From positions 1 through 64,000 of the forward strand of contig JBGAGQ010000017.1 of NCBI GenBank assembly GCA_044226625.1: 64,000 bases of DNA, read 5' to 3'. The notes beneath the pieces were generated by a model. It ran no database searches. It was not told the origin of the DNA and saw only the letters and a program-made list of their open reading frames with translations. Positions 1,197-49,134 of the stretch are shown piece after piece (the stretch's first letter is position 1; every line of letters starts with the position of its first letter). The stretch comes from Thermoanaerobaculia bacterium. GTDB taxonomy: Bacteria > Acidobacteriota > Thermoanaerobaculia > Multivoradales > UBA5704. The position numbers were made by a program, and so were the translations under genes.

Positions 1197-1199
1197 GAG

Positions 1200-2045: not shown

Positions 2046-2229
2046 GGCGGTCTGCGGGAAGGGCGGGGCTGACACCCGGCGGAAGGAGTCCGGGAAACGA
2101 CCTCTGAAGGTTTTCACACGATGCCGTCGATTCCGTGTCTTCCGAGGAGGGACTGTCTTCGCGATTCCTCGGCCGCCCGTTCTGGCGGCCGGGGATTCCA
2201 AGGGGACTTCACTCAAGGAGAACCGCGTC

Positions 2230-2943: not shown

Positions 2944-2993
2944 TCCCCTCGTTGTCTGGGCGATCAGACGGAACGTGTAACGTCTGAGCGACT

Positions 2994-3140
2994 ACCCCCA
3001 CCTCGGTCCTCCCCCGCAAGCGGGGGAGGAGGCCCACTCGGCCCCTCTGTGCCCTTCGGGTCCGCCCACCTCTTCCGACTCCAACCTCCTTTCGCCGCAG
3101 AGTCCCTCCCCCCGCTTGCGGGGGGAGGCCAGGAGGGGGG
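2994..3140. repeat. REP-like palindromic doublet
   Basis: TCCTCCCCCGC-AA-GCGGGGGAGGA (3007-3030) and an inverted copy CCTCCCCCCGC-TT-GCGGGGGGAGG (3105-3128), between convergent genes. Confidence 0.7.
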
Positions 3141-3171
3141 CTCTCTCTTGCCAGGAGGGGGCGACGATAAG

Positions 3172-4521: not shown

Positions 4522-4540
4522 GGTTGCCTTGGGTTTGCCC

Positions 4541-5389: not shown

Positions 5390-5868
5390 GGATTCGCCTC
5401 CGGCGATGTCTGCGGCACTGGCGGCTCCGGGCAGATCGCGCGCAAGATTCCCTCGTAGCCCGTACAGCGGCAGAGGTTCCCGGCCAGCGCGGCCTTCACC
5501 TCGTCGCGGGACGGCGAGGGGTTCTCTTGGAGCAACGCCCAAGCGGAGACGAAGATCCCCGGCGTGCAGGCGCCGCATTGAACCCCGCCCGCTTCGACCA
5601 GGCGATCGAGCAGCGATTTCGCCTCTCCGTTTTTCGAGATGGCCTCGATCGTCTCGACCTTGCGGCCGGCGCATTGGGCGAGCGGAACCAAGCAGGAGAG
5701 GACCGGGATTCCGTCGAGCAACACCGTGCAAGCGCCGCATTCCCCTTCGCCGCACCCCTCCTTCGTGCCGGAGAAGCCGAGCCGTTCGCGCAGCGCGTCG
5801 AGGAGGCGATCCATCGGACGCCCTTCGACGCTCACCGCACGGCCGTTCACCTCGAGCTGCGCGCTCAT
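5386..5868 (-). CDS. Xanthine dehydrogenase-family [2Fe-2S] subunit
   Basis: GTKEGCGEGECGACTV, QCGACTPG, GNLCRCTGY. Confidence 0.93.
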   Translation of the reverse strand: MSAQLEVNGRAVSVEGRPMDRLLDALRERLGFSGTKEGCGEGECGACTVLLDGIPVLSCLVPLAQCAGRKVETIEAISKNGEAKSLLDRLVEAGGVQCGACTPGIFVSAWALLQENPSPSRDEVKAALAGNLCRCTGYEGILRAICPEPPVPQTSPEANP

Positions 5869-8081: not shown

Positions 8082-8117
8082 TTTGGGGCGGGGACCGGAG
8101 TGCCTGCGGGGAGGAGG

Positions 8118-11951: not shown

Positions 11952-12749
11952 TTGAGCACGAACGAAGAGCCGAGTTACTACGAGATCGCGCTCACCAACC
12001 GCCAGGTGGTGAGCGCGTTCGTGATCCTTTTGGGTTGTCTGTTGGTCGCCTTCCTGTCGGGGGTGTGGATCGGCAAGGGCCAGCTCGCCTCGGTCGAGGG
12101 AGCGCAGGTTCTCGCGACGCCACCGGAGAACGCGACGGTCGAGGCGGGCAAGCCGGAGGCCCTCGACTTCTTCGAGGACATCCAGACCGCCGGAAGCGAC
12201 AAGGGGCCGGAGCCGACCCCGCCGCCGAAGCCGGGTAGCGAGCCGCAGGTGGTCGAAAAGCCCGAGCCGTCGCCTGACACGATCTTCGAAGGGGAAGAGC
12301 CCGCGCCGGGCTCGCCGGGTGCCGCGGTGGCGGAGTCGAGCCCTGGATCGGACCGGTCGAACGGCGGAGACAAGCCGCTCGTCCGCTCCGAGCCGCCGCG
12401 CCCGGGCACCCGGGCGAGCGACGAACCGGCGAAGCCCGCGAACGACCGCGCGAACCGCCGCAACGAGGAGAAGGCCCCGACGAGCCGCCCGGCGGCGCCC
12501 GGAGGCGACCGCGAGCCGGCACCGGGCGCCATCGTGATCCAGGTCTTCGCTTCGCCCAGCCGGGACGAGGCGGTCAAGGTGCGCGACCGTCTGCGCAAGG
12601 GAGGAGAGAAGGCGTACCTCTCTCCGACGACCCAGGGGAAAACGCTCTATCGCGTCCGTGTCGGCCCGTTCAAGAAGCGCGATCGGGCGGTCGCCGTGGC
12701 GGCGAAGATCCAGAAGACGTACAAGCTCGAAACCTGGGTCACGCAGTAG
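11952..12749 (+). CDS. SPOR-domain membrane-anchored peptidoglycan-binding protein
   Basis: N-terminal TM helix, Pro-rich linker, C-terminal IQVFAS...YRVRVGPF. Confidence 0.85.
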   Translation: MSTNEEPSYYEIALTNRQVVSAFVILLGCLLVAFLSGVWIGKGQLASVEGAQVLATPPENATVEAGKPEALDFFEDIQTAGSDKGPEPTPPPKPGSEPQVVEKPEPSPDTIFEGEEPAPGSPGAAVAESSPGSDRSNGGDKPLVRSEPPRPGTRASDEPAKPANDRANRRNEEKAPTSRPAAPGGDREPAPGAIVIQVFASPSRDEAVKVRDRLRKGGEKAYLSPTTQGKTLYRVRVGPFKKRDRAVAVAAKIQKTYKLETWVTQ

Positions 12750-12758
12750 GCGCGTCGA

Positions 12759-14375
12759 TTGGGTCTACGCCTCGGGCGTCTCGCCCCGCTCGCACCGTAT
12801 CTGCTCGCGCTCGCCTCGGGACTCCTCTGGGGCGCTGCGTTCGGCCGCACCTCCTGGATCCTCGGCGGTTGGCTCGCGCTCTCGCCGCTCCTGGTCCTGC
12901 TCGGTCATCCCCGGGCGGGCCGGTTGGCGTACCTCCACGGCCTCGCCGCCTGGGGCCTCGGCCTCTCCTGGATTCCGGCGACGCTCACCCGCTTCGGCGG
13001 TCTCCCCGGCGTGGCGGCCGGCGGGTGCCTGCTCATCCTCGCGAGCTATCTCGCCCTGTTCGAGGTCGCGTTCGCTCGCCTCGGTCGAGCGTTCTGGCTT
13101 CGCGGGGGAGCGACCGCGCTCGTCGGGCTGCCGGCTCTGTGGGTTGGGCTCGAGTGGCTTCGCGCCCACCTGATCGGCGGCTTTCCGTGGAACCTCGCGG
13201 CCTATGCCTGGGTGGACGTCCCCGGCGCCCTACCGCTTTCGGCCTGGATCGGCGCCTACGGCGTCTCGTTCCTGGTCCTGTTCGCGAACGTCGGCGTGGC
13301 GCAGACCTGGATGGCGCCGGCCCGAGCCGACGGTGCCGAGGGCGGGCTTCGAGTCCGAGTCGCGCCGCTCGCGATCGCCCTCCTGGTTCCCCTCCTGCTG
13401 CTCGGCCTCGGCGGCCGGGCGACTCACCGCGCGGGGCTCGACCGCCAGATCGAGAGGATCGAGCGGGGCGATTTCGGCCGGCCGGTGCGGATCGTCCAGC
13501 CGAACCTGCCGATTCGCACCGACTGGGATCCTGAACAGGCGTACCGCGACTACCGTCGGGCGATCGAGCTCGCGAGCGATTCATGCGAGCCGGGAGCTCT
13601 CGTCGTCCTCCCGGAAAGCGCCCTCTGGCCGTTCTCCTACGATCACGATCCGGTCCTCCGCAACGATCTGGCGACCCTCGTCGCGCGCGGCTGCTCGCTC
13701 GTCTTCAACAGCCAGACCTCGGCGTCGGAGACGAAGATCTTCAACTCGGCCTACCTGCTCTCGCCGGTCCCGCCCGAGGTGACCCGCTACGACAAGCGCC
13801 ACCTGGTGCCGTTCGGCGAATACATCCCGTTCTCGGCGCTGCTCGGCTGGGTCGGCCGAATGGCGCGGGGGATCGGGGAGTACACCCCGGGCGCGGACGT
13901 CGTCCTGCTCCCGTGGAAGGGGGCCGGTGCGGCGCACCACGCTCTCGAAGCTCCGGACGACCGCGTCGGCATGGCGATCTGCTATGAGGTGGTCTATCCC
14001 GAGGACGTCGCGGATCTGTCGCGCGCCGGGGCCACGATCCTCGCTTCGGTGACCAACGACGCCTGGTACGGAGACACGTGGGCGCCGTATCAGCACCTTC
14101 GGGCGGCCCGGTTCCGGGCGGCCGAAAACCGCAAGCCGCTCCTGCGCGCCGGGCTCACCGGAGTCTCCGCCCTGATCGGCCCCGACGGCGCGGAGCAGGA
14201 GAGAGTCCCGCTCGGTACCACGGGCGTCATCCGCGCCCGGGTCACCGGCGAGGAGGGGGTGACCCCGTATGCTCGTGCGCCCTGGCTGCCGCCGCTCCTC
14301 GCCTCGCTCTTTGCCCTGTTTGCTATCATCCGTTGTCGTTGGTCGACGTCCCGTCGAGACCATCCGGCGCGTTAG
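12759..14375 (+). CDS. lnt: Apolipoprotein N-acyltransferase
   Basis: GGFPWN; catalytic E-K-C triad in VLPES, YDKRHLVPFGEY, ICYEVVY; TNDAWYG. Confidence 0.95.
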   Translation: MGLRLGRLAPLAPYLLALASGLLWGAAFGRTSWILGGWLALSPLLVLLGHPRAGRLAYLHGLAAWGLGLSWIPATLTRFGGLPGVAAGGCLLILASYLALFEVAFARLGRAFWLRGGATALVGLPALWVGLEWLRAHLIGGFPWNLAAYAWVDVPGALPLSAWIGAYGVSFLVLFANVGVAQTWMAPARADGAEGGLRVRVAPLAIALLVPLLLLGLGGRATHRAGLDRQIERIERGDFGRPVRIVQPNLPIRTDWDPEQAYRDYRRAIELASDSCEPGALVVLPESALWPFSYDHDPVLRNDLATLVARGCSLVFNSQTSASETKIFNSAYLLSPVPPEVTRYDKRHLVPFGEYIPFSALLGWVGRMARGIGEYTPGADVVLLPWKGAGAAHHALEAPDDRVGMAICYEVVYPEDVADLSRAGATILASVTNDAWYGDTWAPYQHLRAARFRAAENRKPLLRAGLTGVSALIGPDGAEQERVPLGTTGVIRARVTGEEGVTPYARAPWLPPLLASLFALFAIIRCRWSTSRRDHPAR

Positions 14376-14404
14376 ATCCCCCTCACGATTTCTAGGAGTT
14401 CCCC

Positions 14405-15521
14405 ATGATCGCCTCCGACGTTCAGCAACGGATCGACAAGCTCGCCTCGAAGCTCGGTAACCTTCGGGGGTATCTTTGAGGACGCTGGATTCGAAAAACG
14501 GATCGGCGAGATCGACAAACAGATGGAAGCGCCCGGTTTCTGGGACAACCCGGGCAAGAGCGCACCGCTGCTGCAAGAGCGTAGGGGCCTCGACCGCAAG
14601 CTCGCGACGCTGAAGAAGCTCCGCACCGACGCCTCCGATCTCGACACCTGGAGCGAGCTGCTCGCCGAGGGCGAAGCGGATCCCGAGGTCGAGACCTTTC
14701 TCGAAGGCCTTTCCGGTGACCTCGACAAGCTGGAGATCGAGCTCAAGCTCGCCGGCCCCGACGACGACAAGAGCGCGATCCTGGTGATCCATCCCGGAGC
14801 GGGCGGCACCGAATCGCAGGATTGGGCCGAGATGCTGCTGCGCATCTACCTTCGCTTCGGCGAGCGCCACGGCTACGACGTCGAGCTGATGGAGCGTCAG
14901 GACGGCGAAGAGGCGGGGATCAAGAGCGCCACCCTCGGCGTCCGGGGCGAGTACGCCTATGGATACCTGAAGAGCGAGAAGGGGGTCCATCGCCTGGTCC
15001 GGATCAGCCCGTTCGATTTCCAGGGGCGCCGCCATACTTCGTTCGCCTCGGTCGACGTCTATCCGGAGGTCGACGACGACATCAAGATCGAGATCAACGA
15101 CAACGACCTGCGGATCGATACCTACCGCGCTTCCGGCGCCGGTGGCCAGCACGTCAACAAGACCGATTCCGCCGTGCGCATCACCCACCTGCCGACCAAC
15201 ACCGTGGTCGCCTGCCAGAACGAGCGGAGCCAGATCAAGAACCGCGCGATGGCGATGAAGATCCTTCGCTCACGCCTCTACGACCTCGAGGTTCGGAAGC
15301 GCGAAGCCGAGCTCGCCGAGCGGGAAGGCAAGAAGCTCGACAACGCCTGGGGAAGCCAGATCCGCAGCTACGTCCTCGCGCCCTATCGGCTGGTCAAAGA
15401 CCACCGCACCGGCTGCGAGGTCGGGGACGCCGACAAGGTGCTCGACGGCGGCATCGATCCCTTCATCGAGGCCTATTTGAAGGGGCAGATGTCGGCGGGC
15501 GCCGCGGACGAGCTGGAGTAG
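14405..15521 (+). CDS. prfB: Peptide chain release factor 2 with programmed +1 frameshift
   Basis: ATG 14405, then GGGGG-TAT-CTT-TGA-G (CTT 14474-76, TGA 14477-79); the +1 frame continues into the long ORF with SPF and GGQ motifs. Confidence 0.96.
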
Positions 15522-35171: not shown

Positions 35172-35284
35172 CCCTCGCTTCGAACATTGAGTCCGCGTGA
35201 GCGCGCGGGGCGAAGACTTCGACGCCTTTCGGTGCGCAGAGGGTGTCGCGTACCCGGCGGAATTCCCTCGTATACTCCCACGCC

Positions 35285-36310
35285 ATGTCCATTACCTTTG
35301 GAATCTTCTTCGGTTTCGTGACCTGGTTCATCGTCCGCTACCTGCTCGCCGGCCTGTACACGGTCGACCAGAACGAGCGGGCGGTCAAAACCGTGCTCGG
35401 GCGCGCCCAGCGGTTGCCCGGACAGTCGACGTTGCAGGACCCGATCGCGCAGGCCCTGCGGCCCGACGAACGCGATCGCTACAACTACCCGCAGGTGCGC
35501 GTGATCCCGCCGGGCGGCCCCTATTTCCGCTGGCCCTGGGAGCGCGTGCACAAGATCTCGGTCGCGACCAACACGCTCAACATGGCGTTCGATCCCGAAA
35601 CGCCGAGCGCGAACTCCGGCGGCAAGCTGCTCGAGGCGGTCACGAAGGACCAGCTCAACACGGGGCTCACCGGGCAGATCCGGTATCGGGTCTCCGAGCG
35701 GAATCTCTACGCCTATCTGTTCGGGGTGAAGAACCCGATCGCCCACGTGATGGGATATTTCGTCTCGATCCTGCGGGAGCGCATCTCGAATTTCGAGGCG
35801 CCGCATCCGTCGGGGCCGGTCGATCTGGAGAATCCGGTGAGCCCGCCGGTCCAGCTCGAGAGCCAACCTCCCGAGGCGACCGTCGTTTCCGGCATCTCGA
35901 TCAACGACCTGCGCAAGAACCTTCGCGATCTGAACGATCACATGGACCGGGAGTGCCGCTCGTCCGCCGCTCGCTACGGCATCACCCTCGACGCCTCCTT
36001 GATCACCGAGATCGATCCGCCAGCGGAGGTCGAATCCGCGCTGGCCGCGATCAACACCGCGCACAACCACGTCTCCTCGGACATCAGCCTGGCGCACGCG
36101 GCGGCGGACCAGAAGATCGTCCAGTCCAAGCGCGCGGTCGAGATCGAAACGCTCAAGGCGGAGGGTGAGGTCGAGCCGCTGGTGCGGCTCGCCGAGCAGC
36201 TCTCCGATTTGAAGAGGCAGGGACCGCATGCCCTCTCGGCGTACCTGAGGAACGTGCGGCTCGGCCTGTTCGGCAAGGCGCAGGACGCCTTCGTGGAGGT
36301 GAAGCGATGA
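35285..36310 (+). CDS. SPFH/band-7 domain protein
   Basis: N-terminal TM, YTVDQNERAV...GR, AVTKDQ, C-terminal coiled-coil-like region. Confidence 0.8.
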   Translation: MSITFGIFFGFVTWFIVRYLLAGLYTVDQNERAVKTVLGRAQRLPGQSTLQDPIAQALRPDERDRYNYPQVRVIPPGGPYFRWPWERVHKISVATNTLNMAFDPETPSANSGGKLLEAVTKDQLNTGLTGQIRYRVSERNLYAYLFGVKNPIAHVMGYFVSILRERISNFEAPHPSGPVDLENPVSPPVQLESQPPEATVVSGISINDLRKNLRDLNDHMDRECRSSAARYGITLDASLITEIDPPAEVESALAAINTAHNHVSSDISLAHAAADQKIVQSKRAVEIETLKAEGEVEPLVRLAEQLSDLKRQGPHALSAYLRNVRLGLFGKAQDAFVEVKR

Positions 36311-37200
36311 GCTTCCTGATCGCTGCGTTCGTCACGTTCCTCGTGATGATGTTCCTGGTGCCGTTTCTCCTCTGGGTGGTGCGCGTCCTCGGCCTTTACG
36401 CGATCGTCTACGAGCGGACCTGCCGCGTCTACGTGTTGTTCGGCAAGGTGATCGGTGTCCTCGACGAGCCGGGCCTCCACATCCTGCTGTTCAAGCTCGG
36501 ACCGGCGGCGTTCCTGGTCAACTGGCTGGGCAAGTGCCACGTGCTCGACATGCGCCTCGATCAGGAATACTTGCGAAGCCAGCCGGTCAACTCCGAGGAA
36601 GGCGCGCCGATGGGGATCGGCGTCTGGTACGAGATGTACATCTCGGATCCGGTCGCCTTCCTGTTCAAGAACACCGATCCCCGCGGCTCGCTGCGCGCCA
36701 ACGTCAGCAACGCGACGGTCCGTTGCCTGTCGAACATGAAACTCGCCGACATGCTGGAGACGCGCCATCAGATGAGCGCCACGGTGCGCGCCGAGGTGTC
36801 GGAGAAGTCGCACGAGTGGGGGTACAAGCTCGGCTCGGTCTACGTCCGCAAGGTCCACTTCCGCGACGGCGGCATGATCCGGCAGATCGAAGAAAAGGTG
36901 GTCAACCGTCTGCGCCAGGTCACCTCGGCGATCAAGCAGGACGGCGCTAATCAAGTGAGCATCATCACCAGCACCGCCGAGCGCCAGGCGGCGATCGAGT
37001 TCGCCAAGGCGAGCGCGATGCGACCGCAGATCGTCGGCGCCGCCTTGAACCAGATCTCGAAGGATCCGGAGATCGAGGCCGCCCTCTTCGAGATCCTCGA
37101 AAATCAGCGCTTGGTCGAGGGGAACGCGCGCGTCACCCTGATGCCCGAGGGAGGCGAGCTGCTCACGAACCTGCTCGCGGGCGGAGCGAAGCGCCTCTGA
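36307..37200 (+). CDS. SPFH/band-7 domain protein (second of the pair)
   Basis: N-terminal TM, LFGKVIGVLDEPGLH, EWGYKLGSVYVRKV; ATGA coupling. Confidence 0.8.
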   Translation: MSFLIAAFVTFLVMMFLVPFLLWVVRVLGLYAIVYERTCRVYVLFGKVIGVLDEPGLHILLFKLGPAAFLVNWLGKCHVLDMRLDQEYLRSQPVNSEEGAPMGIGVWYEMYISDPVAFLFKNTDPRGSLRANVSNATVRCLSNMKLADMLETRHQMSATVRAEVSEKSHEWGYKLGSVYVRKVHFRDGGMIRQIEEKVVNRLRQVTSAIKQDGANQVSIITSTAERQAAIEFAKASAMRPQIVGAALNQISKDPEIEAALFEILENQRLVEGNARVTLMPEGGELLTNLLAGGAKRL

Positions 37201-37212
37201 TCCGAGCCGAGA

Positions 37213-37246
37213 GAGGGGCGCCGGTCTCGAACGGTCGGCGCCCCTC
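37213..37246 (+). terminator. GC-rich hairpin after the SPFH pair
   Basis: GAGGGGCGCCGG...TCGGCGCCCCTC, with no clear U-tract. Confidence 0.45.
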
Positions 37247-37281
37247 GAAGCCTTCCCGCCTCCGAGGCTCCTTTCCTTTCG

Positions 37282-38352
37282 ATGAACGCCGCCAAGACCG
37301 TCACGCCGTCGCAGTTGATGGACTTCCTGCTCAACGTGGCGGTCGTCCGTCCGGTCTTCATTTGGGGGCCGCCGGGGATTGGCAAATCGAGCCTGGTCGC
37401 TCGGTTCGCCGAGCAGCTGGGCCTGCACTGCGTTTCCCTCCTCGGCAGCCAGCTCGCGCCGGAGGACCTGATCGGCGTGCCGCAGGTGACCGACGGCGTG
37501 AGCCGCTTCTGCCCCCCGGCCGAAATCGCGCGGAACGAGCCGTACTGCCTCTTCCTCGACGAGCTAAACGCCTGCTCGCACGAGGTTCAGAAGGCGTTCT
37601 ACAGCTTGATCCACGAGCGCCGGATCGGCGAGTACCGCCTGCCCGAAGGGTCGATCGTGATCGGCGCCGGGAACCGGGCCCAGGACAGCGCGATCGTCAA
37701 ACCGATGTCATCGGCGCTGCTGAATCGGATGGTTCACGTCCACCTGACCGTTTCGCACCGCGACTGGATGGCCTGGGCGCACACGAGCGACGTCCACCCG
37801 TTGGTGATCGAATACCTCGAGCTTCGTCCCGATCAGCTCTGGAGCGCGCCGCCTAAACACGAGGAGCCGTTTTCGACCCCGCGTTCTTGGCACATGTTGA
37901 GCGACGCGCTTCATCAGTTCGGGGCGGGCATCCGCGACGAGGAGATCGAAGCGCTCGCTTACGGTTGTCTTTCACCGCAGCACGCGACGCAGCTCAAGGC
38001 GTTCGCCAAGCAGAAGCGAAGCCGTTTCGCGCTCCATGCCATCTTGAAAGGCGATTCCGGGTGGCCGCACGATCCGGCGGACCGCGATGTCCTCTACTTC
38101 CTCTCGCAGTCGTTTCGGACGCATCTGCAGCGCGAGCTGCCGCAAGATCCGCAGGGACTTCAGCCGCAGCACAAACAGCTTGCCCATCGCGGCAAGGCAC
38201 TGCTCAAGGAGCTGGCCGCGATCAGCCTGGAGATGGCGCAGTTGGTCGTGGCGGAGGAGGGTGGCGACGCCGCGGCGGGGAACCTGCCGAGCTGGTTCCT
38301 GGTCGAGGTCGTTCGCGACCTGCCGCGCTTGGTCGAGAAACGTGCCCCGTAA
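37282..38352 (+). CDS. MoxR-like AAA+ ATPase
   Basis: Walker A GPPGIGKS, Walker B LFLDELN, GAGNR, TPRSW. Confidence 0.9.
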   Translation: MNAAKTVTPSQLMDFLLNVAVVRPVFIWGPPGIGKSSLVARFAEQLGLHCVSLLGSQLAPEDLIGVPQVTDGVSRFCPPAEIARNEPYCLFLDELNACSHEVQKAFYSLIHERRIGEYRLPEGSIVIGAGNRAQDSAIVKPMSSALLNRMVHVHLTVSHRDWMAWAHTSDVHPLVIEYLELRPDQLWSAPPKHEEPFSTPRSWHMLSDALHQFGAGIRDEEIEALAYGCLSPQHATQLKAFAKQKRSRFALHAILKGDSGWPHDPADRDVLYFLSQSFRTHLQRELPQDPQGLQPQHKQLAHRGKALLKELAAISLEMAQLVVAEEGGDAAAGNLPSWFLVEVVRDLPRLVEKRAP

Positions 38353-40162
38353 ACCGGAAAAGCGGCGCGAGGACCCGGCCGATCAGGCGTATCGGGAGGG
38401 GACCGACGCGATCCGCAATCATCCGCTGTTCCTGCCGCTCACCTTTCGCACGGACTTCTACCGCAACGTCCACCAAAACCTCTGCCCGCCGGGTGGTTGG
38501 GCGGTCGCCAACGTGCGGGGCCTCGTCTACTGCCACCCCAAGCGGCGGGCGAGCCCGGAGGAGTGGACCTGGGTGATCGGACACTGCCTGCTCCACTATG
38601 GATTCGGGCATTTTCAGACTCGAGCCCGTCCCGACCTTTGGAACGTTGCCTGCGACTTCTTCATCGACCGCTTTCTCGCCGATTTGAAGCTGGGCCGGCG
38701 CCCCGCGGAGATCCCCGAGCTGAAGCTTCCACCCGGGGCGCCCGCGACCTCGGAAAACGCGCTGTACGACTGGCTGTTCGAAAACGGCGTTCCCGTGGAG
38801 CTTCGCGGCGGCGGGACCGCCGGACCGGGAGCGTTGGACCTTTCGTTCGAGGTGGACCGATGGCGGGGCAAGCTCACGCCATACGGCAAAGAGTGGAGGG
38901 ACGCGCTGGGCGCGGGGCTGCGCAACGCCGTCGCAGCGGCGGTCGACGTCGCGGGAGGTAAAGCGGCGAGCCTCACCGGGGCTACGGGGCCGACCACTCC
39001 TGCCCAACGCGGAAGGTCTTGGTTCATGACCCGCTATCCGCTGCTGGGAGCGCTCGCGGCCTCGTTCCGGCTGATCGAAGACGGCGAGGTCTGCCGCCGC
39101 CTGGACGTCCACGTGGCGGCGGTCGACGCCGAGGCGCGCGAGCTCTACGTCAACCCGCAGATCGGCATGGACGACGGCGAGGCTCGCTTCGTGATGGCTC
39201 ACGAGCTGCTGCACGTTGGCCTCCGCCATCAGGCTCGCTGCCAGGGGCGCGATCCGTTCCTCTGGAACGTCGCGTGCGACTACGTCATCAATGCCTGGTT
39301 GGTGGAGATGGACGTGGGACGGCCGCCGGCTTTCGGAGTGCTGCTCGATCCGGAGCTGAAGGGGCTTTCGGCGGAAGCGATCTACGACCGGATCGTCGGC
39401 GACCTCCGCCGGTTTCGGAAGATTTCGACCTTGCGCGGTGTGGGCGTCGGCGACATCCTTCCGGGCAGAAACCCGCGCTGGTGGCAGGTAGGGGAGGGGG
39501 TGGCGCTCGATGAGCTCTACCGCAACTGCCTGACCCAGGGGCTGCTCTGGCACCGCGACCAATGTCGCGGTCTCCTCCCCGCCGGCCTGATCGAAGAGAT
39601 CGAGGCGCTCGCGCAGCCGGTGATTCCGTGGGACGTGCAGCTTGCGCAGTGGTTCGATCACCGGTTCCCGCCCAAGGAGAAACGGCGCACCTATGCCCGT
39701 CCGAGCCGGCGCCAGATGGCGACTCCCGATCTGCCGCGACCTCGCTTGGCGCCCCTCGACGACGGCTCGATCCGCACCTTCGCGGTGGTCCTCGATACCT
39801 CCGGAAGCATGGATCGGAAGCTCCTGGCCAAGGCGCTCGGCGTGATCGCGAGCTATGCCGCCTCGCACGAGGTCGACGCCGTGCGGCTCGTGTTCTGCGA
39901 CGCCGCCGCGTACGACGAGGGCTACGTCCGTGCGGAGGACATCGCGGGCCGGGTGCGGGTCAAGGGCCGCGGCGGCACCGTCCTCATGCCCGGTATCGAG
40001 CTCCTCGAGAAGGCCCCGGATTTTCCGCGAAGCGGGCCGATCCTGTTGATCACCGACGGTTTCTGCGACGACCTCACGATTCGCCGTGACCACGCCTATC
40101 TCGTGCCGGCGGGGAACTCTCTGCCCTTCTCTCCACGAGGTCCGGTGTTCGGGATTTCGTGA
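38342..40162 (+). CDS. DUF2201-type putative metallopeptidase plus VWA domain protein
   Basis: HCLLH..GH and HELLH..RH, each followed by WNVACD; VWA motifs DTSGSM, GRGGT, ITDG; GTG start overlaps the ATPase. Confidence 0.85.
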   Translation: MPRKPEKRREDPADQAYREGTDAIRNHPLFLPLTFRTDFYRNVHQNLCPPGGWAVANVRGLVYCHPKRRASPEEWTWVIGHCLLHYGFGHFQTRARPDLWNVACDFFIDRFLADLKLGRRPAEIPELKLPPGAPATSENALYDWLFENGVPVELRGGGTAGPGALDLSFEVDRWRGKLTPYGKEWRDALGAGLRNAVAAAVDVAGGKAASLTGATGPTTPAQRGRSWFMTRYPLLGALAASFRLIEDGEVCRRLDVHVAAVDAEARELYVNPQIGMDDGEARFVMAHELLHVGLRHQARCQGRDPFLWNVACDYVINAWLVEMDVGRPPAFGVLLDPELKGLSAEAIYDRIVGDLRRFRKISTLRGVGVGDILPGRNPRWWQVGEGVALDELYRNCLTQGLLWHRDQCRGLLPAGLIEEIEALAQPVIPWDVQLAQWFDHRFPPKEKRRTYARPSRRQMATPDLPRPRLAPLDDGSIRTFAVVLDTSGSMDRKLLAKALGVIASYAASHEVDAVRLVFCDAAAYDEGYVRAEDIAGRVRVKGRGGTVLMPGIELLEKAPDFPRSGPILLITDGFCDDLTIRRDHAYLVPAGNSLPFSPRGPVFGIS

Positions 40163-40170
40163 GGAAAGGC

Positions 40171-40205
40171 GAGCCGCCTCCCGCGCTCGACGGGAGGCGA
40201 CTCGA
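40171..40205. terminator. Hairpin between convergent genes
   Basis: GAGCCGCCTCCCG-cgctcga-CGGGAGGCGACTC. Confidence 0.5.
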
Positions 40206-40222
40206 GGAATCGATCGCCTCGG

Positions 40223-40534
40223 TCAGACCGTGATCGGAACCGCCACGGTCCAGTTCGCCCCGACCGCCGTGCTCGCCGGCGCGGTGTAGGTTTTGGGTAC
40301 GCCGCCCGTGGTGAGGGTCACTTTGAACGCCTGCGGGCCGCCCCAGTTGATCCCCACCATGATGAGGGTGTAAGCACCCGGCGCCAGGATGGCCTGCGGA
40401 CGGACCGTGTAGCTCACGGGGTCGTTGTAGCCCGATTTGATGTGGCAAATCTCCGAGCTTCCGGCGGGAGTGGAGGCCAGGATGTAGAGCTCGTTGTCCG
40501 TGGCGCTGACTTCGATCTTCGTGGTCTGGGACAT
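40223..40534 (-). CDS. Small beta-rich hypothetical protein
   Basis: 103 aa; GGAG RBS; coding-like codon usage; GINWGGP. Confidence 0.7.
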   Translation of the reverse strand: MSQTTKIEVSATDNELYILASTPAGSSEICHIKSGYNDPVSYTVRPQAILAPGAYTLIMVGINWGGPQAFKVTLTTGGVPKTYTAPASTAVGANWTVAVPITV

Positions 40535-40697
40535 GACGCGATCTCCGGTGCCCGTCCGTCGAGAATCATTTCTCGCCGGCTGACGGGGAAGATCCGGTCA
40601 GGCGTCCGATGGGTTAGTGCATTCCAAAGTCGAAAAGCCGCGCCGTCGTCGATCCTTCGGCTCCGGTCCGTGTCAAGATCGCTCCCGGAGGAGCACC

Positions 40698-41360
40698 ATG
40701 AAACCATCCACCAAGAAGGCGATTCGCTGGACGGCGATCGGTCTGGGCCTGGTCGTCGTCGCGGGCGTCACCTGGGCCTTGGTCACGATCGGACCGAGCA
40801 ACGTCTGGGGAATGCTGCGCTACGACACGCGGAAAGAGGGGAAGCTTCAGGTCGGGGACTCGGCGCCCGATGTGGCGCTCCTCGCGCTCGACGGGAAGAC
40901 GCGCGTCCACCTGCGCGAACGGGTGGGTGAACGGCCGCTCATCGTCATCTTCGGCAGCTACACCTGACCGCCTTTCCGGCGCTCGGTCGAGCGCCTCATC
41001 GATCTCCACCGCCGCTACGGCGACAAGGCCACGTTCGTCGCGGTCTACATCCGCGAAGCGCATCCGACCGACGAGTGGCAGATGGAAAGCAACGAAAAGG
41101 AAGACGTCTGCTATCCGCAGCCAAAGAGCACCGCGGCGCGGGTGGCGATTGCGAACGATTTCGTCCGCCGCTTCCACTTTCCAATCCCGCTTTTGGTCGA
41201 CCCGATCGAGAATCCGGCAGACAAGGTCTACGCCGGTTGGCCCGAGCGCTTCTATGTGATCGACGAGCAAGGGACGATCGTCTACAAGGGAAAGACCGGC
41301 CCGTTCGGATTCCACCCCGAAGAAGTCGACGCCTGGCTCGCGAAGCGGTTCGCGAGCTGA
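40698..41360 (+). CDS. Iodothyronine-deiodinase-like selenoprotein (Sec at TGA 40965-40967)
   Basis: GGAGGAG RBS; read-through gives FGSYT-U-PPF, then YIREAHPTDEW, YAGWPERFYVI, GPFGF; SECIS-like hairpin directly downstream. Confidence 0.88.
40978..40995 (+). promoter_or_regulatory. Putative bacterial SECIS element
   Basis: GGCGCTC-GGTC-GAGCGCC: perfect 7-bp stem with a G-first loop, 10 nt after the UGA. Confidence 0.7.
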
Positions 41361-41488
41361 AAACGTGGGAACTCCCGAGCCTTCGCCGAAGGACAGACGG
41401 ACTGCGTCGGGCCTCGTTCCGGCTCGCCGATCTAGAATGAGCCAGGATCATCGCGGTTCGTTCCCCTTCGACCGAGGAGCCCTTCTTC

Positions 41489-42373
41489 ATGAGCGTCGAC
41501 AGCTTCCGCTTTGCCTCGCCGTTGATCAAGCGGTACTACCAGATGAGCCGGGTGACGAGGGAGCTGCCGATTCCTTTCACACGGCCGAGAAAGCCCATCT
41601 CTGAAAGTCGGATCTCGCTCGTCACGACGGGGGGCCTCTACCGCCGTGGCCATGACGAGCCGTTCGATCAAGACCGCGAGCGGCGCGAGCCGGCGTGGGG
41701 CGATCCGAGCTACCGCGCGATCCCGACCGACGTCGACTTGGCGGAGCTCGCGGTGGGCCATCTCCACATCAACCCGGACGACCCCTCCGCCGATCCGAAC
41801 ATCCTCCTTCCGATCGACCGGATCAAGGAGCTCGTTGCGGACGGCAAAGTCGGCAGCCTCGGCGCCCGCGCCTACTCATTCATGGGATACCAGGGCTTTC
41901 CCGCCGATCCTTCCGGTTGGAAGAAGATCTATGGACCGGAGGTGCTCGCGGCGCTCCAGGCCGATCGCGTGGACGCCCTCCTGCTCACCTCGGCCTGACT
42001 GGAGTGCGCGGCCAACGTGCCCGTGTTGGCACGTCTGTTCGAAGGCGGGGGGATCGCCACGGTCGTCGTGACCAACATGCCCTTCTGGGCCGAACGGGTC
42101 GGAACCCCGCGAACGCTCGCCGTCGAGTTTCCTTTCGGTCACCCGCTCGGCGGCACGCACGATCGAGAGATGCAGCGGCGGGTGATCCTGGCGGCGCTCG
42201 AGCTCATCGAGCGAGCGAGCGCGCCGGGGGAGATCGAAGAGTTTCCGGAGAAGTGGGGCGGCTCGGTCGCCGAAGGGCGACGGATCTCCGAGCCGCGAAT
42301 CCCCGCGCCGATCACCGCCCAGATGGGGCGCCACATCGGCGCGTTCCTGCGCGGCATGCGGCGTTCGGCCTGA
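41489..42373 (+). CDS. PrdB/GrdB-like (reductase selenoprotein B family) selenoprotein (Sec at TGA 41996-41998)
   Basis: LVTTGG, GDPSYRAIP, DPNILLP, YSFMG, LLTSA-U-LEC (UxxC), VGTPR, FPFGHPLG; ORFs 41489-41998 and 42017-42373 are in the same frame. Confidence 0.87.
42011..42030 (+). promoter_or_regulatory. Putative bacterial SECIS element
   Basis: GCCAAC-GTGCCCGT-GTTGGC stem-loop, 12 nt after the UGA. Confidence 0.55.
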
Positions 42374-42467
42374 AGCGCGGCTTCGACTTCTCGCGGACGT
42401 TCGAGGCATCGATTGCGTATATCTCGGTACATTCGGGTTTTCCTGAGACTCCTTCCGGGGTGAGACG

Positions 42468-45176
42468 ATGAAAGTCACCTTCGCGTATGCCGCCTTCGTG
42501 CGCCGATTCCTCTTTGCCTTCTCGTTCCTCTTCTTCTGCGGCGCCACGCTTCTCGTTCCTTTCGCCCGCGCCGTTTCCGGCGCGGCCAGCTCATCCCTTT
42601 CCGTGGAGCCGGTGGCGGACCTCGGCCCCCGGCCGGCGATTTCCCTGCGGACTTTGCCGCGGGGCGCGGTGCGAGTCGGGGACCGGATCTTCTTCTTCGC
42701 CTCGGACGAGGTATCACGTTCGGAGCTCTGGACCACCGACGGAACGCAGACGGGCACGCGGCGAGTCCTGGACGTCTCCGCCCTGGGAGTCGATTCCTCG
42801 ATCGTCAGCGGGTCCGGACTGGTGGCGGCGCAAGGAAGGGCCTACTTTCAAACCCTCGATCCGCTCGCGGGCTTGCGGATCTGGAGGAGCGACGGCTCGC
42901 GAGAGGGGACGGTGCCGTTCTTCTCGTTGGATCTCTTCGATGACTTGGAACAGGCGCAGCCGCCGGAAGTCGTGACAGCGGCGTTGGGTCGTGATCTCCT
43001 ATTCCTGAGGACGGGCGAGGAAGGGTTGTGGGACCTGTGGCGCACCGACGGCTCGCCGTCCGGGACTCGCCGTCTGGTGTCGCTGCCGGCTCCGTCGGCC
43101 TCGAGCTCCGGTGGGAGCCAGTTCTTTGAGGCGAAAGGGCGCGCGTATTTCGCGTTGCAAGATCAGTTCTCGACGGTGACGGATCTGTGGACGACCGCCG
43201 GAACGGCGGCCGGCACGGTTCGGCTCGCTTCCGTCCCTTCGCTACCGTCGGCACCGCGCCAGCCGGTCGCCGTGGGGGGGCGTCTCTTCTTCATCGGTTT
43301 CGAAGCGGATCACGGATTCGAGCTTTGGACCTCCGACGGCTCGCCCGCGGGTACGCGGATCGTCCGCGATCTGACGCCGGGACGGCGCAGAACGTTCTTC
43401 GAGCAGTTCTTTCCAGGACGGCGCGCCCTCTATTTCACCCTGTCAACGCCGAGCGGAAGGGAGCTTTGGCGGAGCGACGGCAGCGAAGCCGGCACTTCCC
43501 GCCTGTCGACGGTCGACGGCACATTCGCCACACCCGCCGCGGAGGTCGAGGGCTCGCTGCTGTTCTTTCAGGCCGGCACGCTCTGGCGCGCGCGCGGGAC
43601 GGGCTCACCCCAACGTCTCGCACCGCGCCTCGATCCGTGCGGCCCGTCGGTCCTGGCCGCGGGCCGGTTCGAATTCTTCGCCGACGACGGCGCACGCGGC
43701 TGCCGTCTCTGGCGGAGCGACGGCACCGCCGGGGGTACCGTCCCGGCGGTCGCTTCACCAACCGATGCGTCGGAGGGGACGCTGGTCGCGCTCGAAGATC
43801 GTTTGGTCCTCTTCTCTCCCAACCTGTCGGAAATCCAGGTGATCGCCGGGGACCGCGTCATCCCGCTCCGGCGTCCGCGGGCCGAGCTTCGGTCGGGCGC
43901 CCCGACGTTCCTGGTCCCTTGGCAGGGCGGCATCGCCTTCGCGGCGAACGGCACGTCCCGTCGCGCGATCTACCGCTCCAACGGCACGGCGACGGGAACC
44001 CTTCCGATCGCCTCCGGGGACCTCTGGTCGCCGCTCTTCCTCGGTCTGCCTAGCGACCTCATTCCGCTGGGTGAAAACCTCGCGTACCTGTCGCTCGATG
44101 GAGTCGGGTCTTCCGGTTCTTCACTTTCGGATACGAACCCAAAGCAGCTCGACGGCTATCCGGTCGGCGCCGCTCATGACGGGCGCGTGCTCTTTTCCTT
44201 CGCCGGCCGCGCCTATTGGCTCACGCTCTCGGCCGACGGCCGCGACGTCGAGTTGCGAAGCACCGATGGCACGGAGGCGGGAACGGCGACCGTGAGCCGC
44301 CTCTTCGACGCGCCCGTCTCGCCGTTCGGTGGCGTGACCTACGTGCCCGATTTCTTCGTCGTCCGAGCTGAGCGCTACCTCGCCTTCTTTTTCCCGGTCA
44401 ACCCCAACGAGGTGTGGACGACCGACGGTACGGCGGCCGGTACGCGGAAAGCGGTTCGCCTCGACGGGCTCCACGACGGCTTTCTGCACGCCGGGGTGGC
44501 GTTCGGCGACGGGATGCTGTTCTCGACTTGGGCGACCCAATCGCAACCTCGGATCTGGCTCACCGACGACTCGGCCCAAGGCGCTCATCCGATCGACAAC
44601 TTGGCTATCCATTCCCTCGATCAGCGCCTGACTGCCGTGGGCCGCCTCGCGTTCTTCACCGCGAGGGATGGGGGAGGGGTGGAGCTTTGGGCGACCGATG
44701 GAACACCTTCGGGAGCTCATCGGGTTCGCGACATCGCGTCCGGGCGGCGCGGCTCGTATCCGCGCGACCTGACCGCCGTGGGCGATCGGCTGTTCTTCAC
44801 CGCCGACGACGGAGCTTCCGGCCGCGAGCTCTGGTCGAGCGACGGCACGGCCGCGGGGACCGTCCGAGTCGCCGATCTGGTTCCCGGCCCCGGGGGCTCC
44901 TTCCCGCAAAAGCTGGCGGCCGTTTTGACCGAAGGTCCCGCCCCCGTGCTCGCCTTCGCGGCGAACGACGGCGTTCACGGCCTGGAGCCCTGGCTCCTCG
45001 AAGCCGACGGAACGAGCGTCCGAATGTTGGCGGACGTGGCCCCCGGCTTCACCTCTTCGAGCCCGGCGGAATTCCTTTCCGTAGGCGCTCACCTCTATTT
45101 TGCCGCCACGACGCGTGCCACGGGACGGGAGCTTTGGAAGGCGACGCTCCAAGACCCTGAAAACACAACGCCTTAG
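42468..45176 (+). CDS. ELWxxDGT-repeat secreted beta-propeller protein
   Basis: Many ELW(T/R/S)(S/T)DG(T/S)..GT repeats; N-terminal signal-like segment. Confidence 0.9.
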   Translation: MKVTFAYAAFVRRFLFAFSFLFFCGATLLVPFARAVSGAASSSLSVEPVADLGPRPAISLRTLPRGAVRVGDRIFFFASDEVSRSELWTTDGTQTGTRRVLDVSALGVDSSIVSGSGLVAAQGRAYFQTLDPLAGLRIWRSDGSREGTVPFFSLDLFDDLEQAQPPEVVTAALGRDLLFLRTGEEGLWDLWRTDGSPSGTRRLVSLPAPSASSSGGSQFFEAKGRAYFALQDQFSTVTDLWTTAGTAAGTVRLASVPSLPSAPRQPVAVGGRLFFIGFEADHGFELWTSDGSPAGTRIVRDLTPGRRRTFFEQFFPGRRALYFTLSTPSGRELWRSDGSEAGTSRLSTVDGTFATPAAEVEGSLLFFQAGTLWRARGTGSPQRLAPRLDPCGPSVLAAGRFEFFADDGARGCRLWRSDGTAGGTVPAVASPTDASEGTLVALEDRLVLFSPNLSEIQVIAGDRVIPLRRPRAELRSGAPTFLVPWQGGIAFAANGTSRRAIYRSNGTATGTLPIASGDLWSPLFLGLPSDLIPLGENLAYLSLDGVGSSGSSLSDTNPKQLDGYPVGAAHDGRVLFSFAGRAYWLTLSADGRDVELRSTDGTEAGTATVSRLFDAPVSPFGGVTYVPDFFVVRAERYLAFFFPVNPNEVWTTDGTAAGTRKAVRLDGLHDGFLHAGVAFGDGMLFSTWATQSQPRIWLTDDSAQGAHPIDNLAIHSLDQRLTAVGRLAFFTARDGGGVELWATDGTPSGAHRVRDIASGRRGSYPRDLTAVGDRLFFTADDGASGRELWSSDGTAAGTVRVADLVPGPGGSFPQKLAAVLTEGPAPVLAFAANDGVHGLEPWLLEADGTSVRMLADVAPGFTSSSPAEFLSVGAHLYFAATTRATGRELWKATLQDPENTTP

Positions 45177-45765: not shown

Positions 45766-45805
45766 CGAGCTTCCCGGCCGGTTAACCGGCTCTCCTCCCC
45801 GCTCC

Positions 45806-45840
45806 GCGCGGTGCCTCCCCTCCGGCACCGCGCTTTTTTT
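45806..45840 (+). terminator. Rho-independent terminator
   Basis: GCGCGGTGCC-tcccctcc-GGCACCGCGC followed by T7. Confidence 0.85.
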
Positions 45841-45978
45841 AGGCCCCTTTCCAGCGCAAGCGCTTCTTCGCGTTCGTGCTATCCTCCCCGCACTACTTTC
45901 GGTAGAGCTTTTCGGATCCCTCGTCCTTCTCGACGCCCGCTCGGGCGCCAAGGTTGGAGATTTCCTGGGAGGTCTGCG

Positions 45979-48900
45979 ATGGCGTTCAAGCGGTGGCTCT
46001 GGTCCGTCTTCTTTCCGCTGTTCGTCGCCTTGACGCTTCCCGCGTTCGGGCCGGTCACCGAGGTCGGCGCGCAGCCCGCGATTCCCTCGGGCGACATCTG
46101 CTCGGCGGACCTCCCGCTTCCCAGCGCTTTTCCCGCGAACAAGTCGGAGTACGAGATCATCCTCGGCCGCTTTTTCCGGGCGAAGTGTTACGAGAAGCTC
46201 GGTTGGCCGCACGATAAGCAGTTGCGGCCCACAGGGCCGACGGTGGCGGCGCTCGCCGCCGGAACGACCGATCCTCACATGCCGCCCGCCTGGCAGACGA
46301 CCACGCTCGGCACCCACACCACCGTGGTCATCTACTACTCGCCGGACGTCTTTCGCTGGATGTGCGAGACCGAGGCGCGGCACGATCCGAAATTCGTCGC
46401 CCAGTGCAAGGTGCGCTGCCCGACCTGCAGGCTCGAATCGGAAGGTACGGTTGCGCCGATCGCGCCGATCGCCGACGGCTCGATGATCATCAAGCTGATG
46501 TACGGCGCGACATCGGCCGAGGATCTCGAGAACCCGCAGGTGCCGACCGGCGAGGCGAACATGTTCGCCCACATGGTCAAAGACGCGAAGGCCTCGAAGG
46601 ACGGTTGGTTCTGGGGCAACTGGGATCCGCAGGCGACCGAGTTCTCGCAGCTCGACTGGCCGCCGCCGGTGAACCTGCCGTATCCGTGGATGGGCTTCGG
46701 CTACTACTGCATGAACTGCCACGCCTCGGCCAAAGCCGAGTCGACGTTCTCGGATCTCAACAACGTGCTCGGCGACCCGGACACGTTCACCAAGTTCTAT
46801 TTCCAGGACCAGCCGCCGATTCCTACGGTCGGGGCCAAAGAGCCGCCACCGATCGAGATGAAGTCGGCGCACGAGCGGTTCGAGGCGCTCCAGAACCTTC
46901 AGGCGCTCGGCACCGGCCCGCTGTGGAACGAGGTTCCCTGGCCGAACTCGGCGGTCAACCGGGTGAGCCAGCCCTCTTCGACCTATCGGCAGAGCTTCCT
47001 TTCGACCTACGGCGCGAAGCGGATCGTGCCTCCCGATTCGAAGACGATCCTGCCGCTCTACATGCCGCCTGAAGTTTACGACCACCGATTCCCCGGGCCC
47101 GTGGCGCCGCCGCCGTTCATGACCTCCGATCAGTGCGTCGGCTGCCACGCGGCGGGCTCGACCGGTATCCACTTCGACATGACGGTCCAGAAGCCCGATC
47201 AGCCGGCGTTCACCAACCTGGTGAACATCGCCGAATACGGCGAGTGGCGCAGCTCGCCGATGGGGCTCGGTGGGCGCGATCCGATCTTCTTTTCCCAGCT
47301 CGAAACGGAGCAGGCGGCGCACCCCGCGCTCGCGAAGCTCGCGCCCGACCTCTGCCTCCATTGCCACGGCGTCATGGGGCAGCGGCAGTTCTGCCTCGAC
47401 CAGTTCCCCGACCGCGAGAAAGGGAACGCCGTCTGCAACAACACGGACCTCCTGGGGTTGAACCAGGACTCGCAGCCGATCGTGCCGCGGCGCCTGTTCA
47501 CGCGCGAGCAGGTGAACGCCATCCCGTTCCGGGCGAAGACCGAACAGGACTTGCAGAACGCCAAATACGGCGGTCTCGCGCGCGACGGGATTTCGTGCAC
47601 CACCTGCCACCACATCGAGATCGATCCGAAGACTCCCATCGGCCACACCTTCACCGGCGATTTCCGGACCGGTCCGGACGACGTCCTCCACGGGCCGTTC
47701 GACAAGCCGCAGCAGGTGCCGATGGATCACACGCTCGGCAGCAAGCCGATCGAGTACCCGCTGATCCGCTCGTCGAAAGTCTGCGGTAGCTGCCACAGCG
47801 TCGTGCTCCCCGTGTTCGACGGCGACAAGCCGTGGGTGCGCCCCGGCGGCAAAAAGCCGGAGATCATCATCGAGCAGGCGACCTATCCGGAGTGGGTCTT
47901 CAGCGACTTCCGCGACGACGGGCCGACGCCGCGCTCCTGCCAGAGCTGCCACATGGCGTCCTCCTACCCGGGGCTGCCGTCGCCACTTACGAGCAAGATC
48001 GCCTCGATCCAAGAGGCGAGCAACATGCCGCAGACGGAGAACCGTCTTCCGCAGTCCGACATCGACCTCCAGCCGCGCTCGCCCTACGGCCGGCACACGC
48101 TGGTCGGTCTGAACGTCTTCTTCAACCAGTTCGCCCAGCAGTTCCCCGACATCCTCGGCATTCGGATTCAAGATCCGATGCTCGGTGGCACCGGCATCGC
48201 GCCGCTCACCACCACCTACAACTCGATGATTCAGCAGGCGGACACGGGGACCGCGACGGCGGAGGTGACGGGCGTGCGGCAGACGGCGGATGCGCTCGTG
48301 GCGGACGTCAAAGTCACGAACCTCGCCGGGCACAAATTCCCCTCCGGCGTCGGCTTCCGTCGCGCGTTCCTGACCTTCGAGGTGCTCGATTCGGCGGGCA
48401 ACGACCTTTGGATCTCCGGCCGCAGCACGGACGACGGCGTGATCGTCGGGCCGGACGGCTCGCCGATCGCGGGCGAGTTCATGTGGGGCAACGAGTGCAC
48501 ACCAGTCCCGGGCAAGGACCAGAAAACCCAGCCGCATTACGAGACGATCACCCGGCAGGATCAGGTCCAGATCTATCAGGAGCTGGTACGCGACCCGCGC
48601 GGCCGGCTCACCACGAGCTTCCTTTCGCTCGCGAACGAAGTGAAGGACAACCGCCTCCTACCGCGGGGCTGGACGCCGAGCGTCCAGCTGGCGGAGATGG
48701 ACGGCCTCGGCAGCCCCAAGCTCTCCGCCGCGGCTCTCGTCCACCGCGTGCTCCCTGACCTGCCCGACGGCAAAGGCGGGACGGTCGACGACCCCTGGTA
48801 CAAGCCGGTCTCTGAAGGGGGCAAAGGCGGGGGAGGGGACGAGCTGGTCTACGCCGTGCCGCTCAAGGATCTCAAAGGAACCGCGGTCTCCGTGCGCGTC

Positions 48901-49134
48901 ACCCTCTACTACCAGTCGATTCCGCCGTTCTACCTCCAGGACCGCTTCTGCTCGACCCCGAACCGGCCGGACACCTCACGCCTCTTCTTCCTCGCCGGGC
49001 ACACGGACCTCTCCGGAACCCGGGCCGAAGGGTGGAAGCTCTCGGTGGTCTCGTCGGGGAGGGTGGCGGTGGAAACGAAGGCGGCGTCCGTCGAGCCTCC
49101 GCGAGAAGCGAGGCGTGGGGGTGGGAGTCGGTAG
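45979..49134 (+). CDS. Large secreted multiheme cytochrome c with an N-terminal cytochrome-P460-like domain
   Basis: Six CxxCH motifs (CMNCH, CVGCH, CLHCH, CTTCH, CGSCH, CQSCH); DGSMIIK..MVKD..DGWFW; GHKFPSG, DNRLLP; GGAGG RBS. Confidence 0.85.
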   Translation: MAFKRWLWSVFFPLFVALTLPAFGPVTEVGAQPAIPSGDICSADLPLPSAFPANKSEYEIILGRFFRAKCYEKLGWPHDKQLRPTGPTVAALAAGTTDPHMPPAWQTTTLGTHTTVVIYYSPDVFRWMCETEARHDPKFVAQCKVRCPTCRLESEGTVAPIAPIADGSMIIKLMYGATSAEDLENPQVPTGEANMFAHMVKDAKASKDGWFWGNWDPQATEFSQLDWPPPVNLPYPWMGFGYYCMNCHASAKAESTFSDLNNVLGDPDTFTKFYFQDQPPIPTVGAKEPPPIEMKSAHERFEALQNLQALGTGPLWNEVPWPNSAVNRVSQPSSTYRQSFLSTYGAKRIVPPDSKTILPLYMPPEVYDHRFPGPVAPPPFMTSDQCVGCHAAGSTGIHFDMTVQKPDQPAFTNLVNIAEYGEWRSSPMGLGGRDPIFFSQLETEQAAHPALAKLAPDLCLHCHGVMGQRQFCLDQFPDREKGNAVCNNTDLLGLNQDSQPIVPRRLFTREQVNAIPFRAKTEQDLQNAKYGGLARDGISCTTCHHIEIDPKTPIGHTFTGDFRTGPDDVLHGPFDKPQQVPMDHTLGSKPIEYPLIRSSKVCGSCHSVVLPVFDGDKPWVRPGGKKPEIIIEQATYPEWVFSDFRDDGPTPRSCQSCHMASSYPGLPSPLTSKIASIQEASNMPQTENRLPQSDIDLQPRSPYGRHTLVGLNVFFNQFAQQFPDILGIRIQDPMLGGTGIAPLTTTYNSMIQQADTGTATAEVTGVRQTADALVADVKVTNLAGHKFPSGVGFRRAFLTFEVLDSAGNDLWISGRSTDDGVIVGPDGSPIAGEFMWGNECTPVPGKDQKTQPHYETITRQDQVQIYQELVRDPRGRLTTSFLSLANEVKDNRLLPRGWTPSVQLAEMDGLGSPKLSAAALVHRVLPDLPDGKGGTVDDPWYKPVSEGGKGGGGDELVYAVPLKDLKGTAVSVRVTLYYQSIPPFYLQDRFCSTPNRPDTSRLFFLAGHTDLSGTRAEGWKLSVVSSGRVAVETKAASVEPPREARRGGGSR

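Follow-up and report, generated by a model that had tools for sequence, protein, structure and literature searches.

The window analyzed here comprises the first 64,000 nucleotides (64 kb; G+C content, 67%) of contig JBGAGQ010000017.1 from the Thermoanaerobaculia bacterium assembly GCA_044226625.1. At positions 40,698 to 42,373 on its plus strand, open reading frame (ORF) calling yields four fragments, which we interpret as two full-length genes, each carrying a single in-frame TGA that is predicted to specify selenocysteine (Sec, U). Gene A encodes a deiodinase-like protein and gene B a protein related to PrdB and GrdB. An earlier reading made from the letters and an ORF list without database searches (here, the sequence-only reading) had fused the four fragments into these two genes and had proposed that the pair forms an undescribed selenium-dependent module. 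The fusion, in which gene callers had split both genes, is borne out by homologue and site evidence, and its coordinates, lengths (220 and 294 amino acids [aa]), 128-bp spacing, and strand were exact on re-reading; the proposal of a module was not supported. The features are as follows, with positions counted from the first letter of the window.

40687-40693, plus strand: GGAGGAG, 5' of the ATG of gene A.
40698..41360, plus strand: gene A, from ATG 40698 through the stop TGA at 41358-41360 (included); 220 aa with the internal TGA as Sec.
40734..40790, plus strand: gene A N-terminal hydrophobic segment, residues 13-31 (19 residues; Kyte-Doolittle mean, 2.28).
40965..40967, plus strand: putative Sec codon TGA of gene A, U90 in FGSYTUPPF, aligning with the Sec-to-Cys site of Dio2 and Dio3.
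40978..40995, plus strand: candidate Sec insertion sequence (SECIS) hairpin of gene A, GGCGCUC-GGUC-GAGCGCC, 10 nt after the UGA; single sequence.
41361..41488, plus strand: spacer of 128 bp between genes A and B, with no terminator-like or sigma-70-like site.
41474-41479, plus strand: ribosome-binding-type site GAGGAG, 5' of the ATG of gene B.
41489..42373, plus strand: gene B, from ATG 41489 through the stop TGA at 42371-42373 (included); 294 aa with the internal TGA as Sec.
41996..41998, plus strand: predicted Sec codon TGA of gene B, U170 in LLTSAULEC; TGA in 46/46 related loci covering the site.
42015..42034, plus strand: predicted SECIS hairpin of gene B, ACGUGCC-CGUGUU-GGCACGU, 16 nt after the UGA, with covariation and frozen synonymous sites.

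Apart from the internal TGA, neither gene has any disruption of its frame, and the codon-position G+C pattern of all four ORF pieces is that of real genes in the window. Both internal TGAs are followed by C, as the sequence-only reading had stated. C also follows 6 of the 25 ordinary TGA stops among Pfam-supported window ORFs, so the UGA-C context does not discriminate, and we dropped it as a signal for Sec. Three other same-frame ORF pairs (852-1196/1197-2045, 36169-37200/37201-38352, and 56578-57510/54910-56577) were rejected as candidates, the members of each being separate genes of differing Pfam families.

The product of gene B matches Pfam GRDB (PF07355) at 3.3e-9 (36.9 bits; cut-off, 22) and the PrdB model TIGR04483 at 2.6e-34, which upholds its description as PrdB/GrdB-like and, together with its UxxC motif, places it in this superfamily. 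What it shares with PrdB and GrdB, as these are described in two sources (PMC1088965, PMC9312934), is a homologous domain and a Sec-containing UxxC. It is not a typical PrdB: the protein has 294 aa against a model of 238 positions, and its TIGR04483 score of 118.7 bits falls far below the equivalog cut-off of 300. The GRDB match (residues 28-168) stops at position 346 of 347 in the model, just before Sec; an end one position short of Sec suggests that the model derives from sequences truncated at the UGA and scores the N-terminal part alone. The UGA lies at the catalytic position claimed for it, U170 opening the UxxC motif U170-L-E-C173. The AlphaFold2 model (predicted local distance difference test, 93.4; predicted template modeling [TM] score, 0.92) has a strand at 163-167 followed by a helix at 171-186, so that U170 and C173 are predicted to open a helix, an arrangement also known from other UxxC motifs with redox activity. 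A sequence search of the PDB with gene B returned nothing at E<=0.01, and a Foldseek search of the PDB with the model returned nothing at E<=0.001 (best E, 0.02; no listed match with TM > 0.32); the predicted fold gives no functional lead. Gene B lacks a hydrophobic N-terminal segment of the type seen in gene A, and we propose that its protein is soluble.

A search of 5.8 billion proteins with gene B gave 386 matches, and the figures here describe the best 120 of the 386. Exactly 169 aa were deposited for 111 of them, and 116 were no longer than 182 aa, ending in [T/S/A/P]A directly before the Sec codon; among the four longer ones, P0016 reads C-P-D-C and P0105 reads W-P-D-C at the site, and two are gapped there. 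Many close homologues carry the JGI label “D-proline reductase (dithiol) PrdB,” and our literature search found no paper using the term “PrdB-like.” Scanning genome contigs with gene B returned 49 loci, mostly from Anaerolineae and other Chloroflexota, along with one from Actinomycetes and one from Zixiibacteriota, and including a Holophagales locus (L001; 78% identity) and a Thermoanaerobaculia locus (L002; 77%). Codon 170 is TGA in all 46 loci that cover the site, within the motif U-P-[E/D]-C, in relatives at 36-78% identity. No other in-frame stop is present in 28 of the 29 loci checked. In the exception, L020 (Zixiibacteriota; 172-1050), codon 106 is an additional stop, TAG; this homologue may be a pseudogene or contain a sequencing error. 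In an alignment with 29 DNA-derived rows (A4; its 30th row, P0016, comes without DNA), residues 1-169 have a mean pairwise identity of 57.2% over those 29 rows, and residues 171-270 one of 58.6%.

Bacterial SECIS elements are hairpins that lie shortly 3' of the UGA and carry G or U in the apical loop. Across 55 conserved A, G, P, T, and V codon columns of gene B, third-position entropy averages 1.55 bits, and it is 0.00 bits at V177, P178, and V179 and 0.89 at A181; among these four-fold-degenerate columns, zero entropy is confined to the hairpin. These codons make up the hairpin ACGUGCC-CGUGYU-GGCACG(U), whose start is 16 nt from the UGA. Covariation was assessed in 30 of the 47 sequences that the 46 loci and the window provide: pairing holds in 91.9% of cells, three pairs have changed on both sides, one pair occurs as U:A (18 sequences), U:G (8), or C:G (4), and the score was reached by 1 of 500 shuffles, with slid registers nowhere near it. 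On these sequence comparisons, the hairpin has the signature of a SECIS element, and gene B is well supported as a selenoprotein gene.

As the SECIS of gene B, we discarded a different hairpin, 12 nt 3' of the UGA (GCCAACGU / GUGUUGGC), because its 5' arm falls in variable columns and most relatives break the stem. Of the statement that hairpins follow the two UGAs at 10-12 nt, the part concerning gene A therefore stands, at 10 nt, and the part concerning gene B does not, the 12-nt hairpin being particular to the window and the conserved one lying at 16 nt. An Rfam scan of the whole window gave zero matches, so no curated SECIS or other RNA family was recognized. The codon directly after Sec in the gene B of the window (41999-42001) is CTG (Leu), where 46/46 relatives have CCN (Pro), a one-base difference.

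Gene A, a protein of thioredoxin/peroxiredoxin fold, belongs to the deiodinase family, as had been proposed: it matches Pfam T4_deiodinase (PF00837) at 5.7e-36 (124.4 bits; cut-off, 27). Redoxin and AhpC-TSA were also matched, more weakly. Its match to NCBIfam NF038285, “deiodinase family protein” (2.2e-60), scores 204.9 bits, below the curated cut-off of 250, and spans only positions 177-338 of the 347 in the model. Its alignment with the catalytic domains of Dio2 (mouse; 9h48; 2.3e-22) and Dio3 (4tr3; 8e-22) places U90 opposite the Cys of these Sec-to-Cys constructs (in the Dio2 construct, Cys is reported in place of Sec130 [PMC11592359]). The UGA of gene A thus also coincides with the catalytic position of its family.

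Gene A resembles Dio2 and Dio3 in its N-terminal anchor, the FGSxTUPPF motif, the YIxEAHPxDxW block, and the Ser/Thr/Tyr/Glu/His relay, in which its Ser87, Thr89, Tyr117, Glu120, and His122 correspond to Dio2 Ser127, Thr129, Tyr157, Glu160, and His162 as named in the Dio2 study (PMC11592359). By residue mapping from the alignment, it differs in having Pro142 where Dio2 has His182, Thr200 at the clamp position held by Dio3-Arg275 and Dio2-Lys241, and Ile163 at the distal Cys205 of Dio2. The basic clamp residue is proposed there to bind the thyronine carboxylate in animal deiodinases (PMC11592359); in gene A, the second relay His and the basic clamp are both replaced, and it lacks in these respects the marks of a thyronine-specific deiodinase. 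Cys138, the sole other Cys of the protein, is in a loop matching the deiodinase-specific insertion and is kept by most homologues. Net charge is +4 before and +2 after the hydrophobic segment at residues 13-31, and similar segments occur in the nine full-length homologues described below; we read this segment as a putative membrane anchor or signal anchor, and the positive-inside rule weakly suggests that the catalytic domain faces outward.

The search with gene A gave 848 matches, and figures again refer to the best 120. Pieces of 121-161 aa without the active-site motif, covering about half of the query after U90, make up 111 of these, and the nine full-length homologues read FG[SG][FY]T-C-PPF (four) or the same with -W-PPF (five). 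We infer that W at this site is TGA translated under a code in which it means Trp. The part after the UGA (residues 91-220) can be aligned with Dio2, Dio3, and many homologues, so the coding sequence there is conserved. Support for gene A is at the protein level, and it is on protein evidence that gene A appears to carry Sec at the family active site. The U/C comparison called for in the sequence-only reading finds TGA or Cys forms at the site for gene B (TGA in 46/46; CPDC in P0016) and, for gene A, C in four and W in five of the nine full-length homologues. The candidate hairpin of gene A has a 7-bp stem and a GGUC loop (z = -2.1 for the 66-nt fold from the UGA); a hairpin this good follows ~4.8% of the 1117 TGA triplets in the window, so that, by itself, it is weak evidence.

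Both families have Sec forms, as the sequence-only reading had stated: they were catalogued as prokaryotic selenoproteins in 2005 and 2008. The 2005 Sargasso Sea selenoproteome includes “Deiodinase-like protein” (Pfam00837) and “Proline reductase PrdB” (UxxC) (PMC1088965), and the 2008 GOS selenoproteome counts 235 PrdB and 22 deiodinase-like selenoproteins (PMC2398784). Gene A is like the prokaryotic deiodinase-like family of Zhang, Fomenko, and Gladyshev (2005; PF00837) in its in-frame UGA, its downstream bacterial-type hairpin, and the existence of both Sec and Cys forms; a redox role is proposed for the family (PMC1088965, PMC2398784, PMC13188914). It differs in its motif, given as UxxC in two reviews (PMC9312934, PMC13188914), whereas gene A and its close homologues read U/C-P-P-F with no Cys at +3. 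The 2022 and 2026 reviews still describe the family as of unknown function (PMC9312934, PMC13188914).

To address adjacency, we searched the 49 gene B loci, with flanks of up to 10 kb a side, for gene A by tblastn at E<=1e-5 and found it in 0/49. L002 is syntenic with the window, which by this measure looks to come from a Thermoanaerobaculia-like acidobacterium: its SPFH pair (6185-8106) matches that at 35267-37206 with 88-92% identity, and synteny continues through gene B (77%), the cytochrome protein (45961-49125 versus 12179-15337), and a DDAH-like gene. L002 lacks window positions 37201-41488, which hold a MoxR ATPase, a DUF2201/VWA protein, a small minus-strand ORF, and gene A, and encodes in their place, on the minus strand, a protein of 518 aa. 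The 902-aa repeat protein of 42468-45176 is likewise absent from L002. In L001, the 1803 bp upstream of gene B contain a 261-aa ORF, which we read as a glycosyltransferase, and no gene A. Upstream of gene B, only the ribosome-binding site is conserved with L001 and L002. When all ORFs within 5 kb of gene B were clustered across 50 loci, the only widely common families were gene B pieces and antisense shadows, and the next, an ABC-type ATPase, occurred in 8/50; with the best neighbor family at that level, gene B has no conserved partner, neither gene A nor a PrdA-type gene. No PrdA-type partner was found among the conserved neighbor families of these loci or, by Pfam, among the window neighbors. 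Gene B thus departs from the prd operon of PrdB, and its carriers are mainly Anaerolineae and some Acidobacteriota.

The neighborhood comparison, made from the gene B side, therefore shows that adjacency is not kept, and the undescribed selenium-dependent module put forward in the sequence-only reading is not supported, given the 0/49 loci, the absence of gene A from L002, and the lack of a conserved gene B neighbor. Because related genomes do not keep A and B together, there is no conserved two-gene system. The pair resembles grdA-grdB, prdB-prdC, frhA-frhD-hdrA, SAO, and Tso, the selenoprotein operons listed in the 2026 review (PMC13188914), in being two selenoprotein genes on one strand, but those operons recur across genomes, whereas the A-B pair recurred in none of the 49 loci. 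The operon section of that review does not include a deiodinase-like/PrdB pair (PMC13188914).

Set against the L002-syntenic backbone, 37201-41488 and 42468-45176 are two variable islands, with unrelated genes at both places in L002. The first holds the MoxR AAA ATPase, the DUF2201/VWA metallopeptidase-like protein, the minus-strand ORF, and gene A; that ORF (40223-40534, minus strand; 103 aa) has gene-like codon G+C and no Pfam match, is divergent from gene A, and separates it from MoxR/DUF2201. The second holds the 902-aa repeat protein, which has no Pfam match. Positions 45766-49134 encode a protein of 1122 aa that has a cytochrome P460 domain and weakly matches cytochrome c; it is conserved in L002 (66-84% identity), immediately 3' of the gene B region.

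The explanation that we consider most probable is that A and B are two independent selenoprotein genes, adjacent by chance, their adjacency being that of a variable island of the lineage and not of a conserved module. Several observations weigh against this interpretation. A promoter/terminator scan found no sigma-70-like site across 40100-42700 and nothing terminator-like in the spacer, so that co-transcription in this organism is possible, although the scan is uninformative on the point. Conservation of the pair was examined at gene B loci. No SelA, SelB, or SelD was found by Pfam among the 45 ORFs of the window, and a tRNA scan of the window found no tRNA and hence no tRNA-Sec (nor did a scan of the 49 gene B loci find a tRNA-Sec); with the Sec machinery unseen in these 64 kb, Sec decoding here is something that we infer. 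The hairpin of gene A is a candidate SECIS in one sequence, equaled after ~5% of TGA triplets, and the Leu that follows Sec in gene B may reflect either a true substitution or a mistake in the assembly.

It is unlikely, in our view, that A and B are a lineage-specific couple, co-transcribed, with the UxxC protein B re-reducing the oxidized Sec of A. The genes do share a strand, 128 bp apart and with no terminator-like site between them, both are redox-type selenoproteins by family, and co-located selenoprotein genes often act in one pathway (PMC13188914). However, the adjacency is missing in 49/49 related loci and in the syntenic L002, adjacent yet unrelated selenoprotein genes are also mentioned (PMC13188914), and the charges flanking the anchor of A (+4 versus +2) weakly suggest an extracytoplasmic domain, whereas B has no such segment. 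A more specific version, to which we give little credence, is that the two genes were brought together and co-transcribed in this lineage, the stand-alone PrdB-like UxxC protein being the dedicated reductant of the anchored deiodinase-like selenoenzyme; if true, it would be the first functional assignment for both orphan families.

A reading of the in-frame TGAs as true stops, with the four fragments as decayed or truncated genes, is very improbable. TGA is the commonest true stop in the window (25/37 ORFs), and the unseen Sec machinery would fit such a view. Yet the TGA stands at the identical codon in every one of the 46 gene B relatives covering the site (36-78% identity), gene B is as conserved after the UGA as before it, its synonymous sites in the hairpin are frozen, Cys-form homologues exist for both proteins, and neither frame is otherwise disrupted. 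Least credible is that UGA encodes a standard amino acid (Trp, Gly) genome-wide or at these sites: W is deposited at the site in five full-length homologues of gene A and one of gene B, but these forms would be best explained by contigs translated with a TGA = W code, the position is redox active with Cys in other homologues, the conserved hairpin is what SelB-type recoding requires, and 25 of the 37 Pfam-supported window ORFs, as well as genes A and B, stop at TGA, which shows that TGA has not been reassigned.

For two independent selenoproteins, the UGA in each gene would be decoded as Sec in the manner usual for bacteria, by SelB with Sec-tRNA(Sec), acting on the hairpin just downstream. 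Protein A would have a membrane-anchored deiodinase/peroxiredoxin fold with Sec90 in FGSYTUPPF, the selenolate of which may attack an oxidized or otherwise electrophilic substrate and then be re-reduced by a thiol, either Cys138 or an external one. Thyroid hormones are not expected in bacteria, according to the 2005 study (PMC1088965), and a thyronine is an improbable substrate; the expected chemistry would be a half-reaction of the peroxiredoxin or deiodinase kind on a nonthyronine substrate. In protein B, Sec170 and Cys173 may cycle through a selenenylsulfide in a reductive reaction, and the protein would work without the PrdA partner of D-proline reductase.

Elsewhere in the window, positions 2-8117 hold a purine-breakdown cluster encoding an allantoicase, an HIU hydrolase (transthyretin family), a uricase, and a DUF6986 protein, together with a xanthine-dehydrogenase-type enzyme, represented by its 2Fe-2S and molybdopterin-binding subunits.

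Genes A and B each add a member to a family already known, and the pair is not a new system. For annotation, each should be called as a single selenoprotein gene, not as two of four fragments, and such mis-splitting is very common in public protein sets, affecting 116 of the best 120 matches to gene B and 111 of the best 120 to gene A. The stand-alone PrdB-like family merits biochemistry: it almost always has Sec and lacks a PrdA partner, its hairpin stays frozen from phylum to phylum, and no solved structural relative was found for it.

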